Of a DNA stretch of 64,000 nt, positions 36,640 through 51,225 are shown in pieces (positions within the stretch are counted from its first letter, which is position 1; each line of letters starts with the position of its first letter). Under the pieces are notes generated by a model. The model made no database searches, was not told where the DNA came from, and saw only the letters and a program-made list of their open reading frames with translations. This stretch comes from Burkholderiaceae bacterium (lineage in GTDB: Bacteria > Pseudomonadota > Gammaproteobacteria > Burkholderiales > Burkholderiaceae_C), in assembly GCA_017856435.1 (NCBI GenBank), contig JAFMFB010000008.1, forward strand, positions 3,959-67,958. The letters run 5' to 3'. Position numbers and translations under genes: made by a program.

Positions 36640-37131
36640 ATGAAAAACAGGTTCAGTTTCGTTCTGGCTTTGTCCTTGGCCGGTACCGCCCTGGCACAGA
36701 ACGCCACATTCCAGACCAAGTCCCTCACACCAGAGGCAGCCCTGAAGGCGGCCAGCACAGCCCTGGAGAGTTGCCGCAAGCAGGGCTACCAGGTGGCGGT
36801 GGCCGTGGTGGATCGAGGTGGGATTGTGCAGGTCTTGCTGCGCGACCGATATGCGGGCCCACACACCCCACGGGTCGCCACCGATAAAGCCTGGACTGCC
36901 AACAGCTTCAAGACCTCAACCCTACAACTCGCCAGCGAGACACAAGCCGGCAAACCCATGAGCGGCATCCGCGGCGTGCCGCGCTTTCTGGCAGTGGGGG
37001 GCGGTGTGATGATTGAAGGCGGCGGCAGCCAGTTTGGTGCCATCGGCGTTTCTGGCGCTCCCGGCGGTGAGGCCGATGAGGTATGCGCCAAGGCTGGCCT
37101 GAAAGCGATTGCCGAGGATCTCGAGTTTTAA
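36640..37131 (+). CDS. GlcG/HbpS-like (DUF336) heme-binding protein with a signal peptide
   Basis: 163 aa with signal MKNRFSFVLALSLAGTALA. VAVAVVDRGG and GAIGVSGAPGGEADEVCA are typical of the GlcG family. Confidence 0.8.
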   Translation: MKNRFSFVLALSLAGTALAQNATFQTKSLTPEAALKAASTALESCRKQGYQVAVAVVDRGGIVQVLLRDRYAGPHTPRVATDKAWTANSFKTSTLQLASETQAGKPMSGIRGVPRFLAVGGGVMIEGGGSQFGAIGVSGAPGGEADEVCAKAGLKAIAEDLEF

Positions 37132-37149
37132 GCTGCTCTCTGTATTGAC

Positions 37150-38121
37150 TCAGTCCACCCTGGCCCCGCTGGCCTTGACCAGCGGCTGGTACTTGGCCAA
37201 TTCATTGCTGATAAAGGCGGCAAAGCCCTCGGGCGAACCGGGTGCCGGCTCAGCCATCAGGCTGGCAAAGCGGGCCCGGATCTCTGGGCTGTTCAAGGCG
37301 GTCACAAAGGCCTGGTTGAGCCGCGTTACGGTGTCTCGCGGCGTGGCTGCAGGAGCGACCAGACCCCACCAGGTGTCGATGGCAAAGCCGGCATAGGTCT
37401 GGGCCACGGGCGGTATGCCAGGCAGGGCGGTTGAGGGCGCCAGTGTGGTGACAGCCAAGGCTTTCAACTTGCCTGCCCGAATGTTGGGGGCGGCAGTGGC
37501 CAGATTGTCAAAGTTGAAGTCGACCTGCCCTGACAACAGGGCCAGCTGGGCCGGATTGCCGCCGTTGTAGGGGATGTGTACCGCAAATATTCCAGCGCGC
37601 TGCTTGAACAATTCTCCCGCCAGATGACCGGCACTGCCATTGCCGCCACTGCCGTAATTGAGCTTGGCCGGGTTGGCCTTGGCATAGGCCACCAGGTCGG
37701 ACAGGGTGTGGATGTTCAACCGTTGGGCGGTCTGGGCGTTCATCACCAGCACATTGGGCACCCGCAGCATTTGGGTGATGGGTGTGAAATCACGCTGCGC
37801 GTCATAGGGCATCTTGCTGTACAGCCAGGGATTGACGGCGTGGGTCGCGGTGGCGGCAATACCTATCGTGAAACCATCAGGCGTAGCCTTGGCCACCGCA
37901 TCAGCCCCAATGTTGCCGCCCGCGCCCGGACGGTTTTCAATCACAACCAGCCCCAGACTGTCTTTCACCCGCTCGGCCAGTGCACGTGCCGTGGTATCGA
38001 TGGGGCCACCCGCCGCATAGGGCACGATCAGTCGGATTGGACGCGCTTGTGCGCGCACCGTGAACCAGGGCAATGCCAGCGAAGCGCTGGCTGAAAATGC
38101 AAGCAGGTGTCGTCGTTTCAT
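37150..38121 (-). CDS. Bug family (TctC-like) substrate-binding protein
   Basis: MKRRHLLAFSASASLALPWFTVRAQARPIRLIVPYAAGGP. I chose the ATG at 38121 over the longer ORF start at 38232. Confidence 0.9.
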   Translation of the reverse strand: MKRRHLLAFSASASLALPWFTVRAQARPIRLIVPYAAGGPIDTTARALAERVKDSLGLVVIENRPGAGGNIGADAVAKATPDGFTIGIAATATHAVNPWLYSKMPYDAQRDFTPITQMLRVPNVLVMNAQTAQRLNIHTLSDLVAYAKANPAKLNYGSGGNGSAGHLAGELFKQRAGIFAVHIPYNGGNPAQLALLSGQVDFNFDNLATAAPNIRAGKLKALAVTTLAPSTALPGIPPVAQTYAGFAIDTWWGLVAPAATPRDTVTRLNQAFVTALNSPEIRARFASLMAEPAPGSPEGFAAFISNELAKYQPLVKASGARVD

Positions 38122-38173
38122 GAGGCGAGCCTTGACAGTTGGATGTTCAGAAATTGTGTGTACATGCAGCGGA

Positions 38174-39151
38174 TCATTCGGCCGTGGCAGGTTTGGACTT
38201 GATTCTTGGTAGTGGCTGCCCCGAGGCTGCACTGGCGGTGATCAGCTGAAGGCCAGGAACAAGCCGCTCAAATTGATCCGCGGGAGCCACCGTGACAGCC
38301 ACACTAAGCTCGTGCGATCCACCCCCTTGGATCACGCCGCGCAGCGGCGACACATCGCCAAAATCGCGCCCAATGGCAACCGTTACATAGTCTTCGCCTG
38401 GGCTGGGATAGCCACATCGTTGGTTGGTGGGATCAAAGTCATACCACTTGCCTTCGCAGGCGACCGATACCCAGGCATGCGAAGCATCAGCCCCTACCAA
38501 TCGCTCCTTGCCGGGAGGTGGTTGGGTGAGCAGGTAGCCGCTCACATAGCGCGCCGCTAACCCCAACGAACGCAGACACCCCAGCATGATGTGGGCAAAG
38601 TCCTGACACACGCCCTTGCGCTGAGCCAGGGCCTGCAAGGCCGGGGTATGTATTTCCGTGCTTTGGCTCTCATAGCGCAACTCCATGTGGATTCTGTTCA
38701 TCAAGGCTTCGCAGGCGGCGAGAAGAGGGCGTCTTGGCGTGAAATCCGGGCGGGCGAATTCAGTGAAGGTATCGTCGATCACCACAAAAGGCGATGCAAA
38801 GCGAAACTCCGAGCTGGGTTCATAGGGCTGACCGGCATGGTATTGGTAGGCTTGCTGCACGTCTTCCCAAGCCGGTGAGGCTGGCAACGGGGCGCTTTTT
38901 CGGGTTTGCAACAGGCTATCGGAAATCACATCGAGCTGTTCATGGGGGCTTTGCAGGGCAAAAAATGTTCGCTGATTGCCAAAGGCGTCGCTCGTGTCCT
39001 GTCGCTGGGCGGGCACTGGCAGGATGGCCGTTTGATGACGCAGCAGCTGTTGGCCATCTGTCTGAAGCGGTTGCAGGTGGGCCAGATGCTGGGCCAGCAT
39101 GACAGGTACCTGATAGATGTATTGGGTATGGTGAATGACACGAAGCAGCAT
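38174..39151 (-). CDS. Transglutaminase-like cysteine protease fold protein (Bact_transglu_N + transglutaminase core)
   Basis: MLLRVIHHTQYIYQVPV is a typical N-terminal domain. The candidate catalytic triad is Cys in KGVCQDFAH, His in ASHAWVSV and Asp in YDFDPTN. A TTG at 39160 is an alternative start. Confidence 0.85.
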   Translation of the reverse strand: MLLRVIHHTQYIYQVPVMLAQHLAHLQPLQTDGQQLLRHQTAILPVPAQRQDTSDAFGNQRTFFALQSPHEQLDVISDSLLQTRKSAPLPASPAWEDVQQAYQYHAGQPYEPSSEFRFASPFVVIDDTFTEFARPDFTPRRPLLAACEALMNRIHMELRYESQSTEIHTPALQALAQRKGVCQDFAHIMLGCLRSLGLAARYVSGYLLTQPPPGKERLVGADASHAWVSVACEGKWYDFDPTNQRCGYPSPGEDYVTVAIGRDFGDVSPLRGVIQGGGSHELSVAVTVAPADQFERLVPGLQLITASAASGQPLPRIKSKPATAE

Positions 39152-39156
39152 GGCGT

Positions 39157-41739
39157 TCAACTGAACAGGCTTTGCTTGATGCGCTCAGCGTGGCTGAAAT
39201 AACGCTGTGTCATCTTGTCCGACAAATCAGCGGCTGCCTGCTCCAGACTGTTTAAAAGTGCCATCAACTCGGCCGGGGCCGGTAGGGCTTCGCGGGTCAG
39301 GTTCTGCGCCGCTGATTCGTTGGAGGCGACGGCGCCGCTGAGGGTGGCTAGGTCCCATGATTGGGGATCGGGCAGGAGGTCCAGCAGTTCGGGGGCGTCC
39401 GAATTTTGCTGGGGCAGCTTGATCACACGTGCGCGCAGGGATTTGAGCACCCAGCCCAGAGAGCGCGGGTTGTCTTGGTTGATGACCAGCATGTCCAACA
39501 ACGCAACGAGATCGCGCCGCTGTTGGTATTGCGCATGAAATGTGATGCTGCTGTCAAACAGACTGAGCAGGGTTTCATAACCCTGGTCATCGAAAACACT
39601 GCCAGTTTCCAGTGCCAGTCGTAGCGCCTGGGCCAGGGTTTGCAGTCGTTCAAGATGCCGGCCGATGCTCAGCATTCGCCAGCCGTTATCCCGCACCATG
39701 CGGTCAGTCTGGGCGCCAGTGATGGCAGCCAGGGATTCGCTCGCCGCGGCCAGTGACTCCAGTGCTTCCTGAGTGGCGTATTCAGAGTCCTCGCCAAGTC
39801 GGGCCTGTTGGGTTGTGAAATTTTCGTCCACTCGGCCAATCAGATTGCGTAATTCCTGAGACAGTCTTTCCCTGACCTGGTTGGCAGATTGATGCAGGGC
39901 GCGCAGGTTGTAGCCAACACTGTGCGCGCCGGAATCGGCGTCCAGCATGGCCACCAGGCTGCGCTCAAAGACCCGGCTAGACTGGCTTGGCGGTGGGGTT
40001 TGCGGCATTACTAGCCCCTGAGCCAGCGCCAGTTGACCCAGCCAGGCCGACAGCCGTGCGTCATTTGCGTCATCGCTGAGGAGGGTCCGCAAGGTCAGTC
40101 GAGCCTGACGAACCGTATTTTCAGCGCGTTCAGTGTAGCGTCCGAGCCAGAAAAGATTTTCAGCAGAACGGCTGGTGACCACACGTTTCTGCTGGGCCAG
40201 CGTGAGGGTACTGCTGGCCTGACGCAGCAGACTGGTATCGTCCGGTTCGCCATCGGAGAGGACCCAGCAATCGGCACTGCTGCCGCCGCGCTGCATTGAG
40301 GCAATCATCTGGCCTTGCGGGGCCAGTCGAACAATGCCGCCGGGCAAAACACGCCAGGAGTCGGGGCCATCGGCCAGGGCAAATACCCGCAACATGGTGG
40401 CACGCGGGGCAATGTTTCCATCGTGCCAGGTCGGGTTGTGTGACAGGGGCAGGTAGGCCTGCAAGGTATGTTCGTCGGGTCGGTGGACAATGCGACGCGC
40501 AAGTTTCTCAAGTGAAACCGCGTCCAGCGTGGGGCCAATCAGGGTTTGACTGAATTTGCCGCTGTAGTTGTTCTTGATCACGCTCTTATGCAACATGGGG
40601 AGCGCGTTTTCCAGGGTGGCTGCCTCGCCGCACCACCAGGTGTCCAGGGACGGCAGCTTCAATGGCTCACTCAGCAGGTGCTCACAAATGGCGGGCAGAA
40701 AGCCCAGCATGGCGCTGGACTCCAAGGGGGCTGAGCCAGGGGCGTTGGCCAGCAACACATTGCCAGCCTGGACAGCCTGCATCAATCCGGGCACACCCAG
40801 TGCCGAGTCGGGACGAAGTTCCAGCGGGTCCAGCCATTGGTCATCCAGGCGCTTGATCAGCACGTCCACCGGCTCCAGACCATCCATGGTTTTCAGGTAA
40901 ACATGCTGATCACGCACGGTCAGGTCATGGCCTTCCACCAGGCTCAGACCAAGATAGCGAGCCAGGTAGGCATGTTCGAAATAGGTCTCGTTGTAGGGTC
41001 CAGGTGTCAGCAGGGCAATCCGCGCGTTAGCGCCCTTGGGCGAAAGGGTCTGCAAGCCTCGCATCAGCGCCTTGTAGCTGCCGGCCAGTCGCTGGACTTT
41101 CATGGCATTGAAGGCGGCTGGAAATTCGCGAGAGATGGTGATCCGGTTTTCAAGCAGGTAACCCAAGCCCGAAGGCGCCTGCGTGCGGTGCGACACGATC
41201 CACCAGCGTCCATCCGGCCCATGTGCCAGGTCAAAGGCAGCGATATGCAGCCAGGTGCCTCCGGCCGGCTGAGCCCCTTGCATGGCTCTCAGGTAGCCAG
41301 GATGCCCCTGCACCAGCGCAGCAGGTAACAAGGCTTGTTCCAGCAGCTGCCGCGGCCCGTAGATGTCAGCCAGAATCCTGTTGAGCAGACGCGCCCGCTG
41401 CGTGACCCCCGCTTCAATGGTGGCCCAATCCTGCGCCGGAATGATCAGCGGAAAAAGATCGAGCGACCAAGGACGCGGTGTGCCTTCAGCATCGGCATAG
41501 ACGTTGTAGGTGACCCCGTTGTCATGCAGTTGACGCACCATGCCCTGCTGGCGCCGGTTCAGGTCGGCAATTCCCTCGGGGCCGAGCAAGTCGAAAAAAC
41601 GAGCCCAGTACTCTGTCAGCGCCGGGTCTTTGCCGCGCAGTTCATCAAGATGACCCCTGGGGGTGGGTCGGGCGATGGAGGCAGCCAGCGCTGAGCCGCT
41701 CAGGGACAGGTCGTTTTGAAAAAGGGATTGCAGGGCCAA
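39157..41739 (-). CDS. Fusion protein: circularly permuted type-2 ATP-grasp domain (N-terminal) + alpha-E domain (C-terminal)
   Basis: 860 aa. The N-terminal half parallels the 45507..46952 product (YFEHAYLARYLGLSLVEGHDL vs YFEHAFLAQQMGVELVEGQDL; NAPGSA vs NAIGTG). The C-terminal half parallels the 46968..47921 product (AENLFWLGRYTERAENT vs ADHLFWMSRYTERAENT). Confidence 0.85.
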   Translation of the reverse strand: MALQSLFQNDLSLSGSALAASIARPTPRGHLDELRGKDPALTEYWARFFDLLGPEGIADLNRRQQGMVRQLHDNGVTYNVYADAEGTPRPWSLDLFPLIIPAQDWATIEAGVTQRARLLNRILADIYGPRQLLEQALLPAALVQGHPGYLRAMQGAQPAGGTWLHIAAFDLAHGPDGRWWIVSHRTQAPSGLGYLLENRITISREFPAAFNAMKVQRLAGSYKALMRGLQTLSPKGANARIALLTPGPYNETYFEHAYLARYLGLSLVEGHDLTVRDQHVYLKTMDGLEPVDVLIKRLDDQWLDPLELRPDSALGVPGLMQAVQAGNVLLANAPGSAPLESSAMLGFLPAICEHLLSEPLKLPSLDTWWCGEAATLENALPMLHKSVIKNNYSGKFSQTLIGPTLDAVSLEKLARRIVHRPDEHTLQAYLPLSHNPTWHDGNIAPRATMLRVFALADGPDSWRVLPGGIVRLAPQGQMIASMQRGGSSADCWVLSDGEPDDTSLLRQASSTLTLAQQKRVVTSRSAENLFWLGRYTERAENTVRQARLTLRTLLSDDANDARLSAWLGQLALAQGLVMPQTPPPSQSSRVFERSLVAMLDADSGAHSVGYNLRALHQSANQVRERLSQELRNLIGRVDENFTTQQARLGEDSEYATQEALESLAAASESLAAITGAQTDRMVRDNGWRMLSIGRHLERLQTLAQALRLALETGSVFDDQGYETLLSLFDSSITFHAQYQQRRDLVALLDMLVINQDNPRSLGWVLKSLRARVIKLPQQNSDAPELLDLLPDPQSWDLATLSGAVASNESAAQNLTREALPAPAELMALLNSLEQAAADLSDKMTQRYFSHAERIKQSLFS

Positions 41740-41796
41740 TGTCTTCGCGATCAGATCAGATTCAGCCCTGAAGTATGCCTGTTTCTCACGGTCGTC

Positions 41797-44700
41797 CTAG
41801 CGCCGCAGGTCCAGGGTGAAGGGGAACTCGCGACTGGGTTGAGCGGGCTGGACCACAATTTGTCCCGGTGTATGGCCCATCTGGAAAAATCTTGCCAGAC
41901 GACGACTCTCGGCTTCGTAGGCATTGATCGGGAAGGTGTTGTAGTTACGCCCACCCGGATGGGCCACATGGTACTGGCATCCGCCCAATGAACGCTTCAT
42001 CCAGGTGTCGACAATGTCAAAGGTCAGTGGGGCATGCACGCCGATCGAGGGGTGTAGGCTGGAGGGCGGATTCCAGGCCTTGTAGCGAACCCCGGCCACA
42101 TAGTCCCCTGCCGTGCCAGTGGGCTGCAAGGGCAGGGCGCGGCCGTTGACCGTCATCACATAGCGACTGTCGTTATAGCCGCTGACCCGGACTTCGAGCC
42201 GCTCCAGGGAGGAGTCGACGTACCGAACTGTCCCGCCCACCGCGCCTTCTTCGCCCATGACATGCCAGGGTTCCAGGGCATTACGCAACGTCATTTCGAT
42301 GCCACGGGTCGCCAGTTGACCAATCAAGGGAAAGCGAAATTCGAAGTGGGGATCGAACCAGCTCCTCTCGAAGTGATAACCGAATTGGCCCATGTCTTCG
42401 AGGACATCATCAAAGTCCATGCGAACGAACGTGGGGAGCAGAAATCGGTCGTGCAGTTCGGTCCCCCAGCGGGTTAGCTTGCCATGCCAAGGGTGTGACC
42501 AGAAACGGGCAACCAGAGCGCGCAACAGCAGTTGCTGTGCCACACTCATGCGGGCGTGGGGGGGCATTTCAAAGGCTCGCAACTCCAGCAGGCCCAGTCG
42601 ACCGCTGGCGCTGTCAGGGCTGTAGAGTTTGTCGATACAAAACTCGCTGCGGTGGGTGTTGCCCGTCACATCGATCAGGATGTTGCGCAGCGCCCGATCT
42701 ACCAGCCAGGGTGGCATATCCTGACCATGTTTATGCCGGTTTGCTGCCATCTGGTTGAGCGCAATTTCAAGCTCATAGAGCTGATCGTTGCGGGCTTCAT
42801 CCACGCGGGGCGCCTGACTGGTCGGGCCAATGAACAGACCGCTGAAGAGGTAGCTCAGGGACGGGTGGTTGTGCCAATAGGCAATCAGGCTGCCCAGCAG
42901 CTCGGGTCGGCGCAGAAAGGGACTATCGGCGGGTGTGGCGCCCCCGAGCACAAAGTGGTTGCCGCCCCCGGTCCCAGTATGTCGGCCATCGGTCATGAAC
43001 TTCTCTGCGCATAGATGGGTCTGGTGGGCCGCCTCATACAGAAATTCGGTGCGTTCAACCAGTTCGCCCCAATGATGGGCAGGGTGGATATTGACTTCGA
43101 TGACTCCAGGGTCTGGCGTGATCTGGAGCATTTTCAGACGTGGATCGCGGGGGGGCGGGTAACCTTCGAGCACGATCTTGACGGCCAGTTGCTCAGCGGT
43201 TGCTTCGACAGCCGCCAACAGGTCGAGGTAGTCTTCCAGGCGCTGCAAGGGCGGCATGAAGACATACAGATGCTGGCTGTTGCCGCCATGGTGTTTCTCT
43301 GAGTTGGGACCATTGGCACGTTGCGGATCCCGGGCCTCAACACACAGTGCGGTACGGATCTGGCCTGAGGCAGATTCGCCACGCCGGGGCCAGGGGGCTT
43401 GCGCGCCTGTTGCCGTGGTGGAGCCCCAGCCAGACATTTGCGCACCGGGTTGGCCATTGGAGTCACCTGCAGGATGCCCTGAATCGGCGCCAGAACCTGA
43501 TACGGCTCGGCTGCTTGCAAACTGAGTGTTTGACGGGTCTTGCGCTCTGCTGAGGGACACGTTTTGGCCCGGCCTGAGCCCGGTGTACTGATGCACCAGT
43601 GTTGCGGCGCTGGGCAAGGCGCCGCGTGGTGCGAACGGGTCTAGCGGCATGGAGTAATCGGTGTCACCCGCGGCCGCCCAGGGCAGAGAGTCCAGGGGCA
43701 GTCGGTAGCCCATCGGTGAATCGCCAGGGATCAGGTACATGCGCTCATCACGCAAAAACCACGGACCGGTTCGCCAGCGCGCACTGCCCGTCGTGTCATC
43801 ATGATGGGCCTGCAGTGGGAGCACGTAGCCCACGGCGGTCTTGAGGCCCTGGCTGAAGACCCGAAACAAGCGCTGACGTTCCAGGGCATCGTCAAGCTTG
43901 GCATCAAAAGGGTCCACATTGACCGGCAGCCGGCGTTCACGCCATAGAAAGTACCAGGCATCTTCAAAACCGGTACAGACATGTTGGTCGGTCAGGCCCA
44001 ATTTGCTGGCCAGCAGCCGGATGAAATTCTGGGCGTCCTGCGAGGTGTATTGGGCAGACTGTCGCTCGTCAGCAAATAGATCCGGGTTTTGCCAGATGGT
44101 TTGGGCATCGTCTCGCCAGAACAGTGACAAGGCCCATCGGGGCAGTTGTTCGCCCGGGTACCACTTGCCCTGACCCAGATGCACAAAGCCACCAGCACCG
44201 TACTGATGGCGCAAGCGATGCAGCAGCTCAGTGGCGTAATTTCGTTTGCTGGGGCCCAGGGCATCGGTGTTCCACTCGGCAGCATCCCGGTTGCTGGTGG
44301 CCACAAAAGTAGGCTCGCCCCCCATGGTCAGACGGACATCGCCTTTTTGCAGGTCTAGGTCCACCCGCTGGCCCAGCGATTGAATCTCTTGCCACTCCTC
44401 GTCGGTATAGGGTTTGGTCACCCGAGGCGACTCATAGATCCGAGAGACTTGCATGTGATGGCTGAAGGACACCTCGCACTCGTCCAGGGCGCCATCGATT
44501 GGCGCCGCACTGGAGGGCTGAGGGGTGCAGGCCAGCGGAATATGGCCCTCGCCAGCCAGCAGACCTGATGTCGGATCCAGACCGATCCATCCTGCCCCAG
44601 GAAGGAATACTTCACACCAGGCATGCAGGTCGGTGAAGTCGTTTTCAGGCCCGTTGGGGCCGTCCACCGATTTCACATCGGGTGTGAGTTGGATCAGATA

Positions 44701-45315
44701 ACCAGAAACAAAGCGTGCCGCCAGGCCGAGGTGACGCAGCAGTTGAACCAGCAGCCAACCGGTATCCCGACAGGACCCAATGCGTTTTTCAAGTGTTTCT
44801 TCAGGCGTCTGGACACCCGGTTCCATACGGACGGTGTAGTCAATGTCCTGTTGCAGCTGCTGGTTGATCTGAACCAGAAAGTCAATCGTGCGCTGTTTCT
44901 CGGTATTGACCTGGCCCAGATAAGCCTTCAGCAAGGGCGTCAGTTTGTCCTTCACGAGGTAAGGCGCCAGTTCTGCCTGCAGTTCGGCTTCATAGCTAAA
45001 TGGAAAATGCTCGGCCGTTGGCTCCAGGAAAAAGTCGAAGGGGTTGTGAACAGCCATTTCAACCACCAGGTCCACGGTCACCTTGAATTGGCGCATGGGC
45101 TCGGGAAATACCAGACGGGCCTGGTAGTTGGCAAATGGATCCTGTTGCCAGTTGATGAAGTGCTGGGCGGGCTCGATTTTTTGTGAATAGGACAGCACCT
45201 TGCTGCGGCAATGCGGTGCAGGACGCAGGCGCACAACCTGCGGCCCGAGATTGACGAGCCGGTCGTACTGGTAGTGGGTGACGTGATTAAGGGCGACGTG
45301 GATGGCCATGCGCAA
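41797..45315 (-). CDS. Large transglutaminase-family protein with a DUF2126-type C-terminal region
   Basis: 1172 aa. The N-terminus has Bact_transglu_N plus a core with Cys (IGSCRDTGW), His (DLHAWCEV) and Asp (IGLDPTSG). This is followed by a long conserved region containing GGEPTF, GTGGGNH and ELRAFEMPPH, which are typical of DUF2126 proteins. Confidence 0.85.
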   Translation of the reverse strand: MRMAIHVALNHVTHYQYDRLVNLGPQVVRLRPAPHCRSKVLSYSQKIEPAQHFINWQQDPFANYQARLVFPEPMRQFKVTVDLVVEMAVHNPFDFFLEPTAEHFPFSYEAELQAELAPYLVKDKLTPLLKAYLGQVNTEKQRTIDFLVQINQQLQQDIDYTVRMEPGVQTPEETLEKRIGSCRDTGWLLVQLLRHLGLAARFVSGYLIQLTPDVKSVDGPNGPENDFTDLHAWCEVFLPGAGWIGLDPTSGLLAGEGHIPLACTPQPSSAAPIDGALDECEVSFSHHMQVSRIYESPRVTKPYTDEEWQEIQSLGQRVDLDLQKGDVRLTMGGEPTFVATSNRDAAEWNTDALGPSKRNYATELLHRLRHQYGAGGFVHLGQGKWYPGEQLPRWALSLFWRDDAQTIWQNPDLFADERQSAQYTSQDAQNFIRLLASKLGLTDQHVCTGFEDAWYFLWRERRLPVNVDPFDAKLDDALERQRLFRVFSQGLKTAVGYVLPLQAHHDDTTGSARWRTGPWFLRDERMYLIPGDSPMGYRLPLDSLPWAAAGDTDYSMPLDPFAPRGALPSAATLVHQYTGLRPGQNVSLSRAQDPSNTQFASSRAVSGSGADSGHPAGDSNGQPGAQMSGWGSTTATGAQAPWPRRGESASGQIRTALCVEARDPQRANGPNSEKHHGGNSQHLYVFMPPLQRLEDYLDLLAAVEATAEQLAVKIVLEGYPPPRDPRLKMLQITPDPGVIEVNIHPAHHWGELVERTEFLYEAAHQTHLCAEKFMTDGRHTGTGGGNHFVLGGATPADSPFLRRPELLGSLIAYWHNHPSLSYLFSGLFIGPTSQAPRVDEARNDQLYELEIALNQMAANRHKHGQDMPPWLVDRALRNILIDVTGNTHRSEFCIDKLYSPDSASGRLGLLELRAFEMPPHARMSVAQQLLLRALVARFWSHPWHGKLTRWGTELHDRFLLPTFVRMDFDDVLEDMGQFGYHFERSWFDPHFEFRFPLIGQLATRGIEMTLRNALEPWHVMGEEGAVGGTVRYVDSSLERLEVRVSGYNDSRYVMTVNGRALPLQPTGTAGDYVAGVRYKAWNPPSSLHPSIGVHAPLTFDIVDTWMKRSLGGCQYHVAHPGGRNYNTFPINAYEAESRRLARFFQMGHTPGQIVVQPAQPSREFPFTLDLRR

Positions 45316-45506
45316 CTTTCAGAAGGAAGGTTTTGGCTTCTTGAGGGCGGACTTCATGAAGCCATGGGGCCTGAAAAGGCCTTCCAGTCTCAATTTTCCA
45401 TGATTACGGACGGGCATGAAAAAAGGCCGTATAGCGGGGTGGACCCCAGTATTAGCCAAATTGCTATCATGGGTGGACGAAACCCTTCCCCCACCAGGCC
45501 CATGTC

Positions 45507-46952
45507 ATGACCCGCCACAGCTTTGATGAGATGTACGCAGCCCCAGAGCAGGTCAGGGAGCACTACAAAAAATATGCGGCCTGGCTTGCCCAGCAGCCGC
45601 CCGACATCATGGCCGCGCGCAAGGAAGAGGCTGAGATGATATTCAGGCGGGTGGGCATCACCTTTGCGGTGTATGGTGACAAGGACGAAGAGGGCGCTGG
45701 AACCGAGCGGCTCATTCCGTTTGACCTGATACCCCGGGTAATACCGGCTGACGAGTGGACGGTCATGGAGCAAGGTCTGGCTCAGCGGGTGACGGCGCTG
45801 AACAGATTTCTGCATGACATCTACCACGACCAGGAAATCCTCAACGCCGGTCTGGTGCCACGGGAGCAGATTGAGGGCAATGTCCAGTTTCGCAAGGAAA
45901 TGCTGGGCGTGGATGTGCCCGGCGGTGTCTATTCCCATATTGCTGGCGTCGATATCGTGCGTGCGCCCGTGCCTGGTGGGCAAGGCGAGGCACAGTACTA
46001 CGTGCTGGAAGACAATTTGCGGGTTCCCAGTGGGGTGAGCTACATGCTGGAAGACCGCAAAATGATGATGCGTCTCTTCCCAAGTCTGTTCACCCAGAAC
46101 CGGGTGGCGCCTGTCGCCCATTACCCTGACCTGCTACTTGAAACCCTGCGCGCCGTTAGCCCCGCGCACACGGCTTCTCCCACAGTGGTCGTGCTGACCC
46201 CGGGCATGTACAACAGCGCCTATTTCGAGCATGCATTTCTGGCCCAGCAAATGGGCGTCGAGCTGGTCGAAGGCCAGGACCTGTTTGTCAAAGACGGCTT
46301 TGTCTATATGCGAACCACCCGTGGGCCCCAACGGGTGGATGTGATCTACCGACGGGTGGACGATGATTTTCTGGACCCCTCGGTATTCCGTTCAGACTCT
46401 GCGCTGGGCTGCGCTGGCCTGCTGGATGTCTACCGCAAGGGCAATGTGACTCTGTGCAATGCGATTGGAACAGGCGTTGCAGATGACAAGTCGATTTACC
46501 CCTATGTGCCAAAAATGATCGAGTTCTACCTGGGGGAAAAACCTATCCTTCACAATGTCCCCACCTTTATGGGGAGAAATCCGCAGGACCTGAAGTACAT
46601 CCTGGCTAATCTCAGGGATCTGGTGGTCAAGGAGGTACATGGTGCCGGAGGCTACGGCATGTTGGTTGGGCCAGCTTCGACGCAGGCGCAAATCGAAGAC
46701 TTTCGTCAGGCGGTGCTGGCCAAACCCGACGGCTACATCGCTCAGCCCACCTTGAGCCTGTCAACCTGCCCTACTTACGTCAAGAACGGGATTGCCCCGC
46801 GCCATATCGACCTGCGCCCCTTTGTGCTGTCGGGCAAGACGGTACAAACAGTACCTGGCGGCCTGACCCGGGTGGCTTTGAAAGAGGGGTCGCTGGTGGT
46901 GAACTCGTCTCAGGGCGGTGGCACCAAGGACACCTGGGTCCTGGAACCCTGA
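45507..46952 (+). CDS. Circularly permuted type-2 ATP-grasp protein
   Basis: 481 aa. FDEMY...VREHY, RVGITFAVYGD, ERLIPFDLIPR, YVLEDNLRVPSGVSYMLE, NAIGTGVADDKSIY and VVKEVHGAGGYGM are typical of the COG2308-type family. Confidence 0.9.
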   Translation: MTRHSFDEMYAAPEQVREHYKKYAAWLAQQPPDIMAARKEEAEMIFRRVGITFAVYGDKDEEGAGTERLIPFDLIPRVIPADEWTVMEQGLAQRVTALNRFLHDIYHDQEILNAGLVPREQIEGNVQFRKEMLGVDVPGGVYSHIAGVDIVRAPVPGGQGEAQYYVLEDNLRVPSGVSYMLEDRKMMMRLFPSLFTQNRVAPVAHYPDLLLETLRAVSPAHTASPTVVVLTPGMYNSAYFEHAFLAQQMGVELVEGQDLFVKDGFVYMRTTRGPQRVDVIYRRVDDDFLDPSVFRSDSALGCAGLLDVYRKGNVTLCNAIGTGVADDKSIYPYVPKMIEFYLGEKPILHNVPTFMGRNPQDLKYILANLRDLVVKEVHGAGGYGMLVGPASTQAQIEDFRQAVLAKPDGYIAQPTLSLSTCPTYVKNGIAPRHIDLRPFVLSGKTVQTVPGGLTRVALKEGSLVVNSSQGGGTKDTWVLEP

Positions 46953-46967
46953 TTCGGAAGGCAAATC

Positions 46968-47921
46968 ATGTTGTCAAGAACCGCCGATCATTTGTTCTGG
47001 ATGTCGCGTTACACCGAACGTGCCGAGAACACGGCTCGCATGCTCGATGTGAATTACCAGACTTCCTTGCTACCCCAATCTGTGGCTGTGGACCAGTTGG
47101 GCTGGGAGGGCATGCTGCGCATCAGTGAACTGATGACGCCTTACCGGGATCTGCACGATCAATTGAACGCATCGGATGTCATGCACTTCATGGTGCGTGA
47201 GGAAACCAACCCATCCAGCATTGTCTGTTGCCTGAAGGCGGCCCGCGAAAATGCGCGTGCTGTGCGTGGCGCCCTGACCACCGAGGTCTGGGAAACCATC
47301 AACGACACCTGGCTGGACCTGCAACGAAAGCTCAAAGGCAAGGAGTTTGAACGCGATCCGGGAAAATTTTTCGAATGGGTCAAATTCCGCTCTCATCTAT
47401 CCCGGGGCGTGGCTATCGGCACCATGCTGCAGGATGAAGCTTTCAGGTTCTACCGCATGGCCACCTTCTTGGAAAGGGCTGACAACACGGCCAGGCTGCT
47501 AGATGTGAAATTTCACGCCGTACACAGCGACTTTTATGGTGCCGCCAGCCAACTCGACCAGGAGTACGACATCTACCATTGGATTGCGATATTGCGAAGT
47601 GTCAGTGCGTTCGAGGTGTACCGCAAGGTTTACCGCGATGTGATCGCCCCTGAGCGGGTCGCCGAATTGCTGATCCTGCGCGCCGACATGCCGCGCAGCC
47701 TGCACGCCAGCCTCAAGGGCGTAGTGGGCAACCTGGAGCAGTTGGCCAATCAGGCGTCTGGGGAAACCGAAAGATTTGCCGGCAAGTTGTTGTCTGAACT
47801 TCAGTACGGCCAGATCGACGAGATCATGTCGTTCGGCTTGCATACCTTTCTGACGCAGTTTCTCACCCGTATCAACCAGCTCGGTACGCGCATCAGCCAG
47901 GACTTTCTGCTTCCAGCCTGA
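46968..47921 (+). CDS. Alpha-E domain protein
   Basis: 317 aa. MLSRTADHLFWMSRYTERAENTARMLDV and FLERADNTARLLDVKF form the duplicated alpha-helical motif of the COG2307-type family. It starts 15 nt after the ATP-grasp gene. Confidence 0.9.
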   Translation: MLSRTADHLFWMSRYTERAENTARMLDVNYQTSLLPQSVAVDQLGWEGMLRISELMTPYRDLHDQLNASDVMHFMVREETNPSSIVCCLKAARENARAVRGALTTEVWETINDTWLDLQRKLKGKEFERDPGKFFEWVKFRSHLSRGVAIGTMLQDEAFRFYRMATFLERADNTARLLDVKFHAVHSDFYGAASQLDQEYDIYHWIAILRSVSAFEVYRKVYRDVIAPERVAELLILRADMPRSLHASLKGVVGNLEQLANQASGETERFAGKLLSELQYGQIDEIMSFGLHTFLTQFLTRINQLGTRISQDFLLPA

Positions 47922-47948
47922 TCGGCCTGAAAAAACAGGATCCGGCAA

Positions 47949-47967
47949 ACCTGGCAGGTGGCCAGGT
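47949..47967. terminator. Candidate bidirectional terminator hairpin between convergent genes
   Basis: ACCTGGC-aggtg-GCCAGGT is a perfect 7-bp stem with a 5-nt loop, between the alpha-E gene (+) and the reductase gene (-). There is no strong U tract. Confidence 0.3.
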
Positions 47968-47992
47968 CAAGTTGTCTTAAGACCTTCGCGCT

Positions 47993-49081
47993 TCAGGCCC
48001 CGTGCTTGTCTGCCTCGCTGGTGAAGGAATCGGCAAAGAACTCTTCTTCGGGCAAGCCAGCCAGGCTGACATAGTCGCGCCGGGCCGAATCGACCACGAT
48101 GGGCGCCCCACAGGCATACACCTGGTGGCTCGACAGGTCAGGCAGGTCCTGCAAGACCGCTTGATGGACAAAACCGGTGCGACCTTGCCAGCCATCTTGA
48201 GGCAGCGCATCTGAAATCACAGGGATGTACTTCAGGTTGGTCATCTCCCTGGTTTTTTGCAGCACCCAGTCGTTCAAGTAAAGGTCGGTGGGTCGTCGGC
48301 CGCCCCAGTAAAGGACCAGGGATCGGTCAATCGCTTTGTGCTGAATGTGTTCGATGATGGCCTTGATCGGGGCAAACCCAGTCCCTGATGCCAGCAGCAC
48401 GATCGGTTTGTCGGAATCTTCGCGCAGGTAGAAGCTGCCAAGCGGCCCTTCGATGCGCAGGATGTCCTTCTCTTTCAAGGCGCCAAAGACATGGTCGGTG
48501 AATTTGCCGCCTGGCATGTGACGGATATGCAGTTCAATGGCGGGGCCCACGGGTGGGGTGGCATCTTTTTGTCCGATGCCCAAGTGGGGAGCTGTGGCCA
48601 TCGAGTAACTGCGCCGGGCGCCGTCGCGCAACAGAAAATCGACATATTGCCCGGCATGAAAGGCAAAATTGTCGTTGGCGGGCAACTGCAGCCGCAGCAG
48701 CATCACATCAACAGATTTTTTATCCAGCTGACTGACTCGAACTGGCAGCTTGCGTACCGGATAGGACCGCTCATCGGTGACCTGCCGCGATTCCAGCACC
48801 ACATCGCTTTGCGGGACGCCACAACAGGCCAGCACCATGCCCTGGGCCTCTTCATCCTGACTGAGGGCCTTGGTCTGATGCTGACCATGGGTCACCCTAC
48901 CTTCTAGTTTTTTGCATTTGCAAGAGCCGCAGGCGCCATCCTTGCATCCGTAGGGCAGTCCGATGCCTTGGCGAATGGCAGCAGCCAGCAGGGTTTCGCC
49001 CGGCTGCACGACAAAACTGCGGCCACTGGGTTGAACGGTGACCTTGAATTCGGCCTGGGGCAGTGATTCATTGGCTGACAT
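47993..49081 (-). CDS. 2Fe-2S ferredoxin / FAD-NAD(P) oxidoreductase fusion (CDP-6-deoxy-delta-3,4-glucoseen reductase-like, FNR family)
   Basis: The plant-type ferredoxin motif CKDGACGSCKC is followed by FNR-like RSYSMA, a GG..T region and LLASGTGFAP. I chose the ATG at 49081 (MSANESLPQAEFKVTV). Confidence 0.85.
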   Translation of the reverse strand: MSANESLPQAEFKVTVQPSGRSFVVQPGETLLAAAIRQGIGLPYGCKDGACGSCKCKKLEGRVTHGQHQTKALSQDEEAQGMVLACCGVPQSDVVLESRQVTDERSYPVRKLPVRVSQLDKKSVDVMLLRLQLPANDNFAFHAGQYVDFLLRDGARRSYSMATAPHLGIGQKDATPPVGPAIELHIRHMPGGKFTDHVFGALKEKDILRIEGPLGSFYLREDSDKPIVLLASGTGFAPIKAIIEHIQHKAIDRSLVLYWGGRRPTDLYLNDWVLQKTREMTNLKYIPVISDALPQDGWQGRTGFVHQAVLQDLPDLSSHQVYACGAPIVVDSARRDYVSLAGLPEEEFFADSFTSEADKHGA

Positions 49082-50196: not shown

Positions 50197-51225
50197 ATGG
50201 GCAGCACAGTCAGAAAAACAAAGCTGAAACCTGAGCAGCATTCGGCCCGACCGGTGAATTCGGCGACGTCGTCAACTGGACCTGCCTGGAAGACTCAAGA
50301 GGTCACCATCATCATGGCGGACATCCGTGGCTTTACCACCATGTCAGAAACCCATGCGCCTGATGTGGTGGTGGAAACTCTGAACCGTTACCTTTCCAAA
50401 ATGAGTGAAGTGGCGGTTGCCAATGGTGGGGTCGTTGACAAATTCATGGGTGATGCGGTGATGCTGCTTTTTGGGATTCCCAATGCTGCGCCCGATGATG
50501 TACAACGGGCTCTGATATGCGCGGTGCAGATGCAGATCGCCATGAAAGAGATGAATCGTGAGAACAAGTCACTGGGTCTTCCTGCCTTGTTCATGGGCGT
50601 TGGCATCAATACTGGAGAAGTGATCGCTGGTACGCTTGGTTCTGCACTGCATTCAGAAAATACCGTCATCGGTAATGAAGTCAATGTGGCGGCGCGCATT
50701 GAATCCTTCAGCTTGCGTGGACAAATCCTGATCAGTGAATCCACCTACGCACGCTGTGCAGATTTTGTCCAGGTTGAGGAACCCATGGAGGTTCACATGA
50801 AGGGCAAAACCCAACCCGTCACCCTGCGGGAGGTGTTGGGGATTCCCTCCTTGTCGCTACAGGTGCCTCGACAGGAAATTCGAAAGAGTCCACGGGTGGA
50901 GGTGCGCTTGCCCTTTGTCTACCAGTCCGTCAAGGGCAAGGTGGTCATCCCTACCGAACACAAGGGACTGGCCCACGACCTCAGTTATGAAGGACTGCTG
51001 GCCGAAGTGTCCCCGGACGTGATGGAGCATGATGAAATTCTGGTCCGCATGGATTTGTCCCTGATTGGCAGCGATATGCAGGAACTCTATGCCAAGGTGC
51101 GCAGTATCCGGGAAGTTGACCAGCATCGAATGGCGGGTATTGAGTTCACCACCGTCAAGGATGATATTGAACGTGACCTGCACCGTCTGGTCCAACTGCT
51201 GATGCAGGGTTCCAGCCATAAATAA
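50197..51225 (+). CDS. Class III adenylate/guanylate cyclase domain fused to a C-terminal PilZ domain
   Basis: Cyclase motifs: VTIIMADIRGFT (metal Asp), DKFMGDAVMLLFG (Lys + second Asp), TVIGNEVNVAARIES (Asn/Arg). PilZ motifs: RKSPR (RxxxR) and DLSYEG (DxSxxG). Confidence 0.8.
   Translation: MGSTVRKTKLKPEQHSARPVNSATSSTGPAWKTQEVTIIMADIRGFTTMSETHAPDVVVETLNRYLSKMSEVAVANGGVVDKFMGDAVMLLFGIPNAAPDDVQRALICAVQMQIAMKEMNRENKSLGLPALFMGVGINTGEVIAGTLGSALHSENTVIGNEVNVAARIESFSLRGQILISESTYARCADFVQVEEPMEVHMKGKTQPVTLREVLGIPSLSLQVPRQEIRKSPRVEVRLPFVYQSVKGKVVIPTEHKGLAHDLSYEGLLAEVSPDVMEHDEILVRMDLSLIGSDMQELYAKVRSIREVDQHRMAGIEFTTVKDDIERDLHRLVQLLMQGSSHK

Follow-up and report, generated by a model that had tools for sequence, protein, structure and literature searches.

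The window analysed here, a 64,000-nt stretch of contig JAFMFB010000008.1 (positions 3,959 to 67,958) from a Burkholderiaceae bacterium, carries at positions 38174–45315 three closely spaced genes, all on the minus strand, which encode a protein joining a transglutaminase-like (TG) module to a DUF2126 region (gene 1), a fusion of a circularly permuted (CP) ATP-grasp domain with an Alpha-E domain (gene 2) and a small TG-like protein (gene 3). An earlier note, drawn from the sequence alone, had placed the three genes on one strand, which it did not name, with gaps of 57 and 5 nt, and its coordinates proved exact. Public gene calls on the identical contig (ENA ERZ27275020 k141_836291, 130 kb; also in JGI and Logan assemblies) assign ATG starts to genes 1 and 3, yielding products of 1170 and 325 aa; with these starts, the gaps are 57 nt between genes 1 and 2 and 5 nt between genes 2 and 3, and neither contains a terminator-like hairpin. 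A protein record 100% identical to the gene 1 product (P0001) was found in three public assemblies. On the opposite strand, a stand-alone CP ATP-grasp gene diverges 197 nt from the ATG of gene 1 (191 nt by the longest open reading frame, ORF) and is followed, after a 15-nt gap, by a stand-alone Alpha-E gene, behind which lies a further gap of 71 nt. The whole locus comprises five genes and seven domains, namely, a pair each of the TG-like, CP ATP-grasp and Alpha-E types and a single DUF2126:

41797–45315, minus strand: gene 1, TG-DUF2126 protein; longest ORF 1172 aa, likely ATG at 45309 giving 1170 aa (Pfam)
44572–45294, minus strand: N-terminal module of gene 1, Bact_transglu_N plus Transglut_core, residues 8–248 (Pfam; Foldseek)
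41803–44484, minus strand: DUF2126 region of gene 1, residues 278–1171 (Pfam PF09899; AlphaFold2; Foldseek)
43402–43566, minus strand: predicted disordered Gly/Ser/Ala-rich insert, residues 584–638 of gene 1 (predicted local distance difference test score, pLDDT, <50; composition)
39157–41739, minus strand: gene 2, 860 aa with a TTG start, CP ATP-grasp (residues 97–473) plus Alpha-E (residues 522–848) (Pfam)
38174–39160, minus strand: gene 3, small TG-like protein; ORF of 328 aa, likely ATG at 39151 giving 325 aa (Pfam)
45310–45506, strand not applicable: divergent intergenic region (promoter scans)
45507–46952, plus strand: stand-alone CP ATP-grasp gene, 481 aa (Pfam CP_ATPgrasp_2, E 1e-162)
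46968–47921, plus strand: stand-alone Alpha-E gene, 317 aa (Pfam Alpha-E, E 2e-97)

The domain assignments proposed previously were all unambiguous in a profile hidden Markov model search of Pfam. The N-terminal part of the gene 1 protein matches Bact_transglu_N (residues 8–86, E 6e-25) and Transglut_core (136–248, E 2e-16), and the gene 3 protein matches the same two families (6–83, E 1e-19, and 148–244, E 2e-18). The Cys/His/Asp sets that the earlier note had regarded as intact are indeed so, with C182/H231/D247 in gene 1 and C185/H228/D243 in gene 3 aligning residue for residue. Both proteins are related to a TG-like putative cysteine protease from Cytophaga (PDB 3isr), with E 2e-13 and a Foldseek target TM-score of 0.76 for the N-terminal region of gene 1, and E 5e-11 for gene 3. 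The cysteine of the small TG protein is kept in 73 of 74 aligned sequences and the aspartate in all 74. Gene 2 encodes CP_ATPgrasp_2 (97–473, E 6e-141) and Alpha-E (522–848, E 9e-55) domains, the latter with an ER motif, GRYTERAENTV, beginning at residue 533. The structural-genomics entry 3n6x, to which gene 2 is similar at E 6e-79, was the only match of the CP ATP-grasp profile in the PDB, whereas no solved structural relative was found for Alpha-E. The stand-alone proteins are paralogues of the two halves of gene 2, at 33% identity for the CP ATP-grasp (BLASTP E 2e-86) and 26% for Alpha-E (BLASTP E 9e-13); YTERAENT is present in both Alpha-E domains, and the stand-alone one contains a second ER motif, FLERADNT. 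Given that none of the five proteins has signal-peptide-like, hydrophobic or transmembrane-like segments, all are predicted to be cytoplasmic. NCBIfam has no model for any of them, and Rfam, at E up to 1 across positions 37000–48200, yielded no riboswitch or other RNA element.

The larger part of gene 1, residues 278–1171, corresponds to DUF2126 (PF09899, E 0, 1342 bits), a family that Pfam now names 'putative amidoligase'. An AlphaFold2 model of the gene 1 protein, built with an alignment of 110 sequences at 36–83% identity, reached a mean pLDDT of 87 and a predicted TM-score (pTM) of 0.86, with low values at residues 584–638 and 1120–1136, and the DUF2126 region modelled alone scored similarly (pLDDT 85, pTM 0.86). 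The top Foldseek match of the DUF2126 model is Escherichia coli YbdK of the GCS2 family (PDB 1r8g, E 0.023, probability 0.91). The rest of the top 50 consists mostly of glutamine synthetases (GS), gamma-glutamylmethylamide synthetases (GmaS) and a GS-like enzyme acting on 1-naphthylamine. Only the fold comparison gave this signal; neither phmmer nor profile searches against the PDB, nor low-stringency Pfam scans of sub-regions, linked DUF2126 to GS or GCS2 by sequence. Iyer and colleagues are said to have described the DUF2126-type ligase in 2009 as circularly permuted, which would lower fold scores. Because the list of matches is consistent, despite the weakness of each single one, DUF2126 is probably a second type of ATP-dependent ligase, a carboxylate-amine ligase similar to GS and GCS2. 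The same assignment was made for Mycobacterium tuberculosis Rv2566, described as combining a TG-like with a carboxylate-amine ligase domain (PMC2588565; Iyer et al., 2008). The invariant Glu, Asp, Arg and His residues of DUF2126 include H817, R837, D839, E840, R874, R877, E891, R906 and E1015. If DUF2126 is a ligase, gene 1 itself would be a fusion of a thiol enzyme with a ligase, and the locus is predicted to encode three ATP-dependent ligases. Thus, of the earlier picture of one ligase accompanied by two thiol enzymes, the two TG proteins stand, but the ligase count does not, as DUF2126 also is a predicted ligase and a second CP ATP-grasp/Alpha-E set lies at 45507–47921.

Two further features of the DUF2126 region deserve mention. 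The Gly/Ser/Ala-rich insert (residues 584–638) splits the region, and phmmer matches to family members skip roughly residues 578–680, indicating that the length and sequence of the insert vary among homologues. Towards the C-terminus, a beta-sandwich (residues ~997–1115; window positions ~41970–42325, minus strand) yields weak fold hits of its own, to domains of the Cu,Zn-superoxide-dismutase-like and immunoglobulin-like types.

The TG module of gene 1 is less uniformly preserved in the family than that of gene 3. The cysteine is kept in 57 of 110 family sequences, among them the window protein, whereas His231 (108/110), Trp233 (110/110) and Asp247 (110/110) are nearly or fully invariant; the other 53 sequences carry Pro, Ala, Ser or another residue at the cysteine site, often in a GSPWE context. 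Both types occur side by side in Methylospira mobilis (L084, 5735–12360) and Methylomagnum ishizawai (L085, 5648–12375), which encode overlapping tandem TG-DUF2126 gene pairs. The first copy, 53–56% identical to the window protein, contains the cysteine; in the second, Pro or another residue takes its place, yet the His, Trp and Asp are retained. Possibly, the two products assemble into a hetero-oligomer in which the second is a pseudo-enzyme. The surroundings of these tandem pairs are devoid of CP ATP-grasp, Alpha-E and small TG genes, suggesting that TG-DUF2126 proteins can work in a different gene context. In several public records (P0057, P0063, P0070, P0071, P0278 and P0390), DUF2126 homologues are labelled 'IMP dehydrogenase', which looks like a propagated misannotation, as the domain evidence lends this label no support.

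DUF2126 proteins are extremely common. Clustered at 50% identity, the family numbers 12,599 representatives with an E-value cut-off of 1e-3 and 3073 with one of 1e-30, and at least 600 genome stretches contain a matching protein. The closest named relatives are from Hydrogenophaga and other Comamonadaceae (74–80% identity), a kinship that fits the presence of a TctC/Bug-type gene next to the locus. Between phyla, the DUF2126 proteins remain 56–62% identical over ~1100 residues. A second, profile-based homology search returned the same close relatives and did not widen the diversity. The comparison of gene neighbourhoods covered 80 genome loci, drawn from Beta-, Gamma-, Alpha- and Deltaproteobacteria, Verrucomicrobiota, Planctomycetota and Acidobacteriota. 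Of the 71 loci that extend far enough downstream, 65 show the order TG-DUF2126, fusion, small TG, and two further apparent misses are ORF-calling artefacts, so that the order is conserved in 65–67 of 71 loci spanning at least five phylum-level groups, in line with the neighbourhood conservation on which the earlier note had relied. The stand-alone CP/Alpha-E pair is more variable, being found within 10 kb in 23 of the 53 loci with enough flanking DNA, in 10 cases divergent as in the window, in 9 co-directional and upstream, and in 4 placed otherwise. Clustering of all flanking ORFs of at least 90 aa revealed no broadly conserved tag, transporter, protease or other protein; the nine examples of conserved neighbours with translations resembling real proteins are all clade-specific. 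There was no Pfam match to the proteasome family among the called genes of the 23.5-kb window locus (L001), which extends ~10 kb to either side, and, lacking an Anbu-type gene, the locus represents an Anbu-less DUF2126 subtype. Overall, given the Pfam families, the published comparative-genomic description and the thousands of copies, the locus is a typical member of a widespread, previously described, chemically uncharacterised gene neighbourhood. To present it as an undescribed biological system, as had been suggested, was an overstatement, considering that the neighbourhood was described bioinformatically in 2008–2009 and is present in at least 600 genome stretches.

The connection drawn to the amidoligase survey of the Aravind group and to the M. 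tuberculosis Rv2566/Rv2567/Rv2569c genes holds (PMC2588565; Anbu papers). The mycobacterial neighbourhood encodes the same three protein types as the window; it is actinobacterial, and the likeness comes from published descriptions rather than from sequence comparison. As related in two papers on Anbu (PMC6376114, PMC5666114), an operon of CP ATP-grasp, Alpha-E, TG-like and Anbu genes was proposed by Iyer et al. (2009) to be a peptide-synthesis or tagging system. Such Anbu operons, for instance, Pseudomonas putida PP_2685-2688 and that of Yersinia bercovieri, share with the window the CP ATP-grasp, Alpha-E and TG-like genes in conserved order and respond to nitrogen limitation, but end with the proteasome-like N-terminal-nucleophile hydrolase Anbu and lack DUF2126, whereas the window has DUF2126 and no proteasome-family gene within ~10 kb on either side. 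In a congener of Burkholderia cenocepacia (L016), genes for the stand-alone CP ATP-grasp, stand-alone Alpha-E, TG, TG-DUF2126, fusion and TG proteins follow each other on one strand. In the B. cenocepacia cluster BCAM1233-1236, the stand-alone pair is co-directional and followed by an extra TG gene, whereas the window pair is divergent with no TG gene of its own; furthermore, the B. cenocepacia cluster depends on NtrC and sigma-54, whereas the window has no recognizable sigma-54 site.

Better-known enzymes offer analogies at the level of chemistry. In the PafA/Dop system, compared with these genes by Iyer et al. (PMC2588565), a ligase of the carboxylate-amine ligase superfamily is paired with an enzyme that reverses the bond. 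By contrast, in the window no proteasome was called and no Pup-like gene lies in the short gaps, the reversing enzyme would have a thiol TG fold instead of a GS-like one, and neither PafA nor Dop is among the top 50 fold neighbours of DUF2126. These best neighbours are instead gamma-glutamylation enzymes (YbdK/GCS2, GS, GmaS, naphthylamine GS), although the match is weak and not significant by sequence. Glutathionylspermidine synthetase/amidase, with its ATP-dependent amide ligase and Cys-based amidase, follows the same logic as the window proteins; the name 'putative glutathionylspermidine synthase' given by its depositors to 3n6x, the only solved CP ATP-grasp structure, is an untested annotation.

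In experiments on members of the system, a CP ATP-grasp homologue of Yersinia was shown to liberate phosphate from ATP (PMC6376114). The uncharacterised Rv2567, selected as a candidate enzyme because it passed a filter for proteins with an ATP-binding domain, was expressed and gave a negative result for the synthesis of gamma-aminobutyrate-trehalose (bioRxiv 10.64898/2026.04.15.718621). Rv2569c has been reported as a cell-wall-associated 'serine protease' cleaving E-cadherin, with a claim of a role in virulence; it was inhibited by 4-(2-aminoethyl)benzenesulfonyl fluoride (AEBSF) and phenylmethylsulfonyl fluoride (PMSF) but not by E-64 or N-ethylmaleimide, although, as the authors themselves point out, a cysteine protease would be expected from its conserved domain (PMC11081392). 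Neither 'catalytic' nor 'active site' appears in the wording of that report, and no active-site mutant was found there; weakly supported as it is, the protease report does not establish the function of the conserved cytoplasmic operon. Neither the name 'DUF2126' nor, under the COG and Pfam accession terms, any functional study was found in the literature searched. The assertion that no substrate, product or phenotype has been established therefore fares unevenly: no substrate was found in the literature searched, but 'no phenotype' is too strong, in view of the NtrC/sigma-54 dependence in B. cenocepacia, the induction of the P. putida Anbu operon, the Rv2569c claim and the negative result for Rv2567.

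Regulation provides the most informative published data. In B. cenocepacia H111, I35_5080-5083 (BCAM1233-1236), which includes a 'large transglutaminase-like protein', falls 6- to 9.4-fold in an ntrC mutant under nitrogen limitation and is among the clusters most strongly dependent on NtrC and sigma-54 in this condition (PMC5491218). The Anbu-type operon PP_2685-2688 of P. putida is expressed more highly on nitrate than on ammonium, and the PP_2688 promoter is induced by nitrogen limitation or depletion (PMC8050072). In marine metagenomes, the domains of the system co-vary with those of urea metabolism (PMC3597751). Papers on mycobacterial GlnR do not mention these genes under the name 'transglutaminase'. 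We scanned 300 nt upstream of the genes for the sigma-54 consensus TGGCAC-N5-TTGCW, requiring both the GG and the GC and a score of 9 or more out of 11. Such sites precede the stand-alone CP gene in 20 of 32 loci, whereas the antisense strand of these regions has them in 2 of 32 and their mononucleotide shuffles in 2.8%; upstream of the DUF2126 gene, they were found in 16 of 79 loci versus 14 of 395 intragenic controls, with the caveat that many loci are interrelated and the counts not independent. The sites of the stand-alone CP genes are from Comamonadaceae, Burkholderia and Chromatiaceae and usually lie 19–30 nt before the start codon. Among individual loci, those of L005, L006, L008, L021, L035, L016, L027 and others are located 19–90 nt upstream. 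Judging from these predicted promoters, sigma-54 control is a recurrent feature of the gene system in relatives of the window organism.

The locus is an Anbu-less version of the CP ATP-grasp/Alpha-E/transglutaminase/GS-like ligase system predicted by Iyer, Aravind and colleagues, of which the CP ATP-grasp, Alpha-E with its ER motif, TG triad and gene order shared across taxa are all present in the window. The function that we favour, with a probability of roughly 0.4, is a cycle in which amide bonds on peptides or proteins are formed and edited, in the service of nitrogen recycling under starvation. The CP ATP-grasp enzymes, each with an Alpha-E helical partner, fused or paired, and DUF2126 would convert a carboxylate into an acyl-phosphate at the expense of ATP and then couple the activated group to an amine, whereby a peptide or protein would acquire an amide of the gamma-glutamyl or isopeptide type. 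Such amides would in turn be attacked by the two TG-like domains, which have a papain fold and a Cys-His-Asp triad, via a thioester acyl-enzyme, and their hydrolysis or transfer would release or relocate the amine nitrogen. Both the acyl-phosphate and the thioester steps are what we infer from the chemistry typical of these folds. A likely physiological role would be the recycling or scavenging of nitrogen during starvation, as the cluster belongs to the NtrC/sigma-54 nitrogen-limitation response in relatives. Peptide or protein substrates are suggested by the duplication of the ligases, each with an Alpha-E partner, the lack of conserved small-molecule catabolic or transport genes alongside, the general preference of TG-fold enzymes for peptide-bound substrates and the very high sequence conservation across phyla.

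Several observations weigh against this interpretation. The ligase matches of DUF2126 are individually weak, with none reaching E 1e-3 and target TM-scores of ~0.25–0.36. In the DUF2126 family as sampled, about one protein in two is without the gene 1-type cysteine, hence the TG domain of these proteins need not be catalytic throughout the family. The gaps of 57, 5, 15 and 71 nt are too short for a tag or precursor gene (the 197-nt spacer was not checked for small ORFs). Pull-downs revealed no stable complexes among the related Anbu-operon proteins of Yersinia (PMC6376114), and, for all members of the system, the literature searched contains no substrate, product or enzyme activity beyond ATP hydrolysis. 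Finally, the divergent region of the window has no sigma-54 site with both the GG and the GC, either in a two-mismatch consensus search or in the scored scan, so that we infer nitrogen control for this organism from its relatives. The nearest resemblance in this region is TATTAG-N5-TTGCT at 45450–45465, in which the -24 GG is missing, and no sigma-70 consensus promoter is recognizable; loss of the -24 GG suggests altered regulation in this lineage.

The main rival to the peptide or protein cycle is gamma-glutamylation of small molecules, whereby DUF2126, and perhaps the ATP-grasp, would capture scarce free amines or ammonia onto glutamate or another carboxylate, and the fused and stand-alone thiol hydrolases would later free the nitrogen. 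PuuA, GmaS and GS-like enzymes of the aniline and naphthylamine type capture amines in this manner, PuuD and the amidase half of the glutathionylspermidine enzyme are analogues of the release step, and a fusion of a thiol hydrolase with a ligase parallels known bifunctional enzymes. Consistent with this possibility, the best fold neighbours of DUF2126 are all small-molecule ligases, with no PafA-like protein ligase in the top 50, NtrC regulons consist mostly of scavenging genes, among which the B. cenocepacia cluster is listed (PMC5491218), and the domains co-vary with those of urea metabolism, as mentioned above (PMC3597751). However, no transporter, oxidase or other catabolic gene is conserved beside the cluster, three ligases and two Alpha-E domains appear excessive for a simple glutamylation route, the identity between phyla suggests a universal rather than a niche substrate, and TG-fold enzymes usually act on peptide-bound glutamine or peptides. 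We regard scavenging as a tentative alternative, with the odds against it. A different idea, which we consider doubtful, is protein side-chain tagging induced by nitrogen starvation and operating without a dedicated tag gene. In such a scheme, cellular proteins, or Alpha-E itself, would receive amino acids such as glutamate on their carboxylates or amines through the CP ATP-grasp/Alpha-E proteins and DUF2126. Removal or transfer of these marks by the TG-like enzymes would steer protein turnover and nitrogen recycling, and the Cys-less tandem DUF2126 paralogues would serve as regulatory pseudo-enzyme subunits.

Two other explanations are less likely than scavenging. Synthesis of a non-ribosomal polyamide comparable to cyanophycin or poly-gamma-glutamate, as a nitrogen or carbon reserve or a protective polymer, would account for the two predicted ligase folds, each type making one of two amide bonds, as well as for the duplicated ATP-grasp/Alpha-E units, with the TG-like enzymes priming or degrading the polymer. 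Cyanophycin synthetase likewise combines an ATP-grasp with a second ligase domain, and the link to nitrogen status fits. Nevertheless, induction by nitrogen starvation is better compatible with breakdown than with ATP-consuming synthesis, no sequence relationship to CphA or Pgs proteins emerged from Pfam or NCBIfam, and we know of no such polymer in well-studied hosts, including Pseudomonas, Burkholderia and Mycobacterium, all of which makes this explanation improbable. Least probable by far is that the small TG protein is a secreted or cell-wall, broad-range protease of the virulence type, with functionally unrelated neighbours. This scenario is modelled on Rv2569c. However, serine-protease inhibitors blocked the activity of that protein, whereas E-64 and N-ethylmaleimide had no such effect (PMC11081392). 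In contrast to the cell-wall association reported for Rv2569c, the window protein looks cytoplasmic, having no signal-like or hydrophobic segment, and its gene is locked in an operon with cytoplasmic ligases in free-living bacteria of many phyla. The residual probability falls to another function altogether.

The genes surrounding the locus accompany the cluster only in close relatives; among their products are a TctC-type binding protein, an HbpS-like protein, a Liv-type ATP-binding cassette (ABC) transporter and a ferredoxin reductase. The TctC/Bug-family binding-protein gene (37150–38121, minus strand) starts 52 nt after gene 3 on the same strand and may be co-transcribed with it; its association with the cluster is likewise limited to close relatives. 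A link of the neighbouring ABC transporter to urea uptake was rejected, as the best score was for LivHMGF-like proteins and below the cut-offs, and the transporter is not conserved with the cluster. Membership in a defence system was also rejected: PADLOC returned no match for four of the five proteins and only a marginal hit of the stand-alone Alpha-E to Csx21 (E 0.002), which is not meaningful. At 50197–51225 on the plus strand, a gene encodes an unusual, unrelated fusion of adenylate/guanylate cyclase and PilZ domains (public Pfam annotation, L001 4085–4996).

Few conserved bacterial gene clusters of unknown function are as widespread as this set: the DUF2126 protein alone accounts for at least 3073 clusters at 50% identity, and carriers of the set include M. 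tuberculosis, Pseudomonas and Burkholderia. The copy in the window, from an uncultured Comamonadaceae genome, is no more amenable to testing than those of Burkholderia, Pseudomonas and Mycobacterium. The present analysis adds the divergent pair of genes, support from fold comparison for the ligase assignment, the recurrence of a sigma-54 promoter among relatives and the Cys-less tandem paralogues; in particular, the predicted GS/YbdK-like fold of DUF2126, the sigma-54 sites in relatives and the tandem DUF2126 pairs allow a sharper experimental design. Tagging, if true, would be a bacterial counterpart of pupylation or of tubulin-type glutamylation, present in thousands of genomes. More generally, solving the chemistry of this system would extend the nitrogen-starvation response by a new protein modification or else by a new ATP-dependent route to amides.

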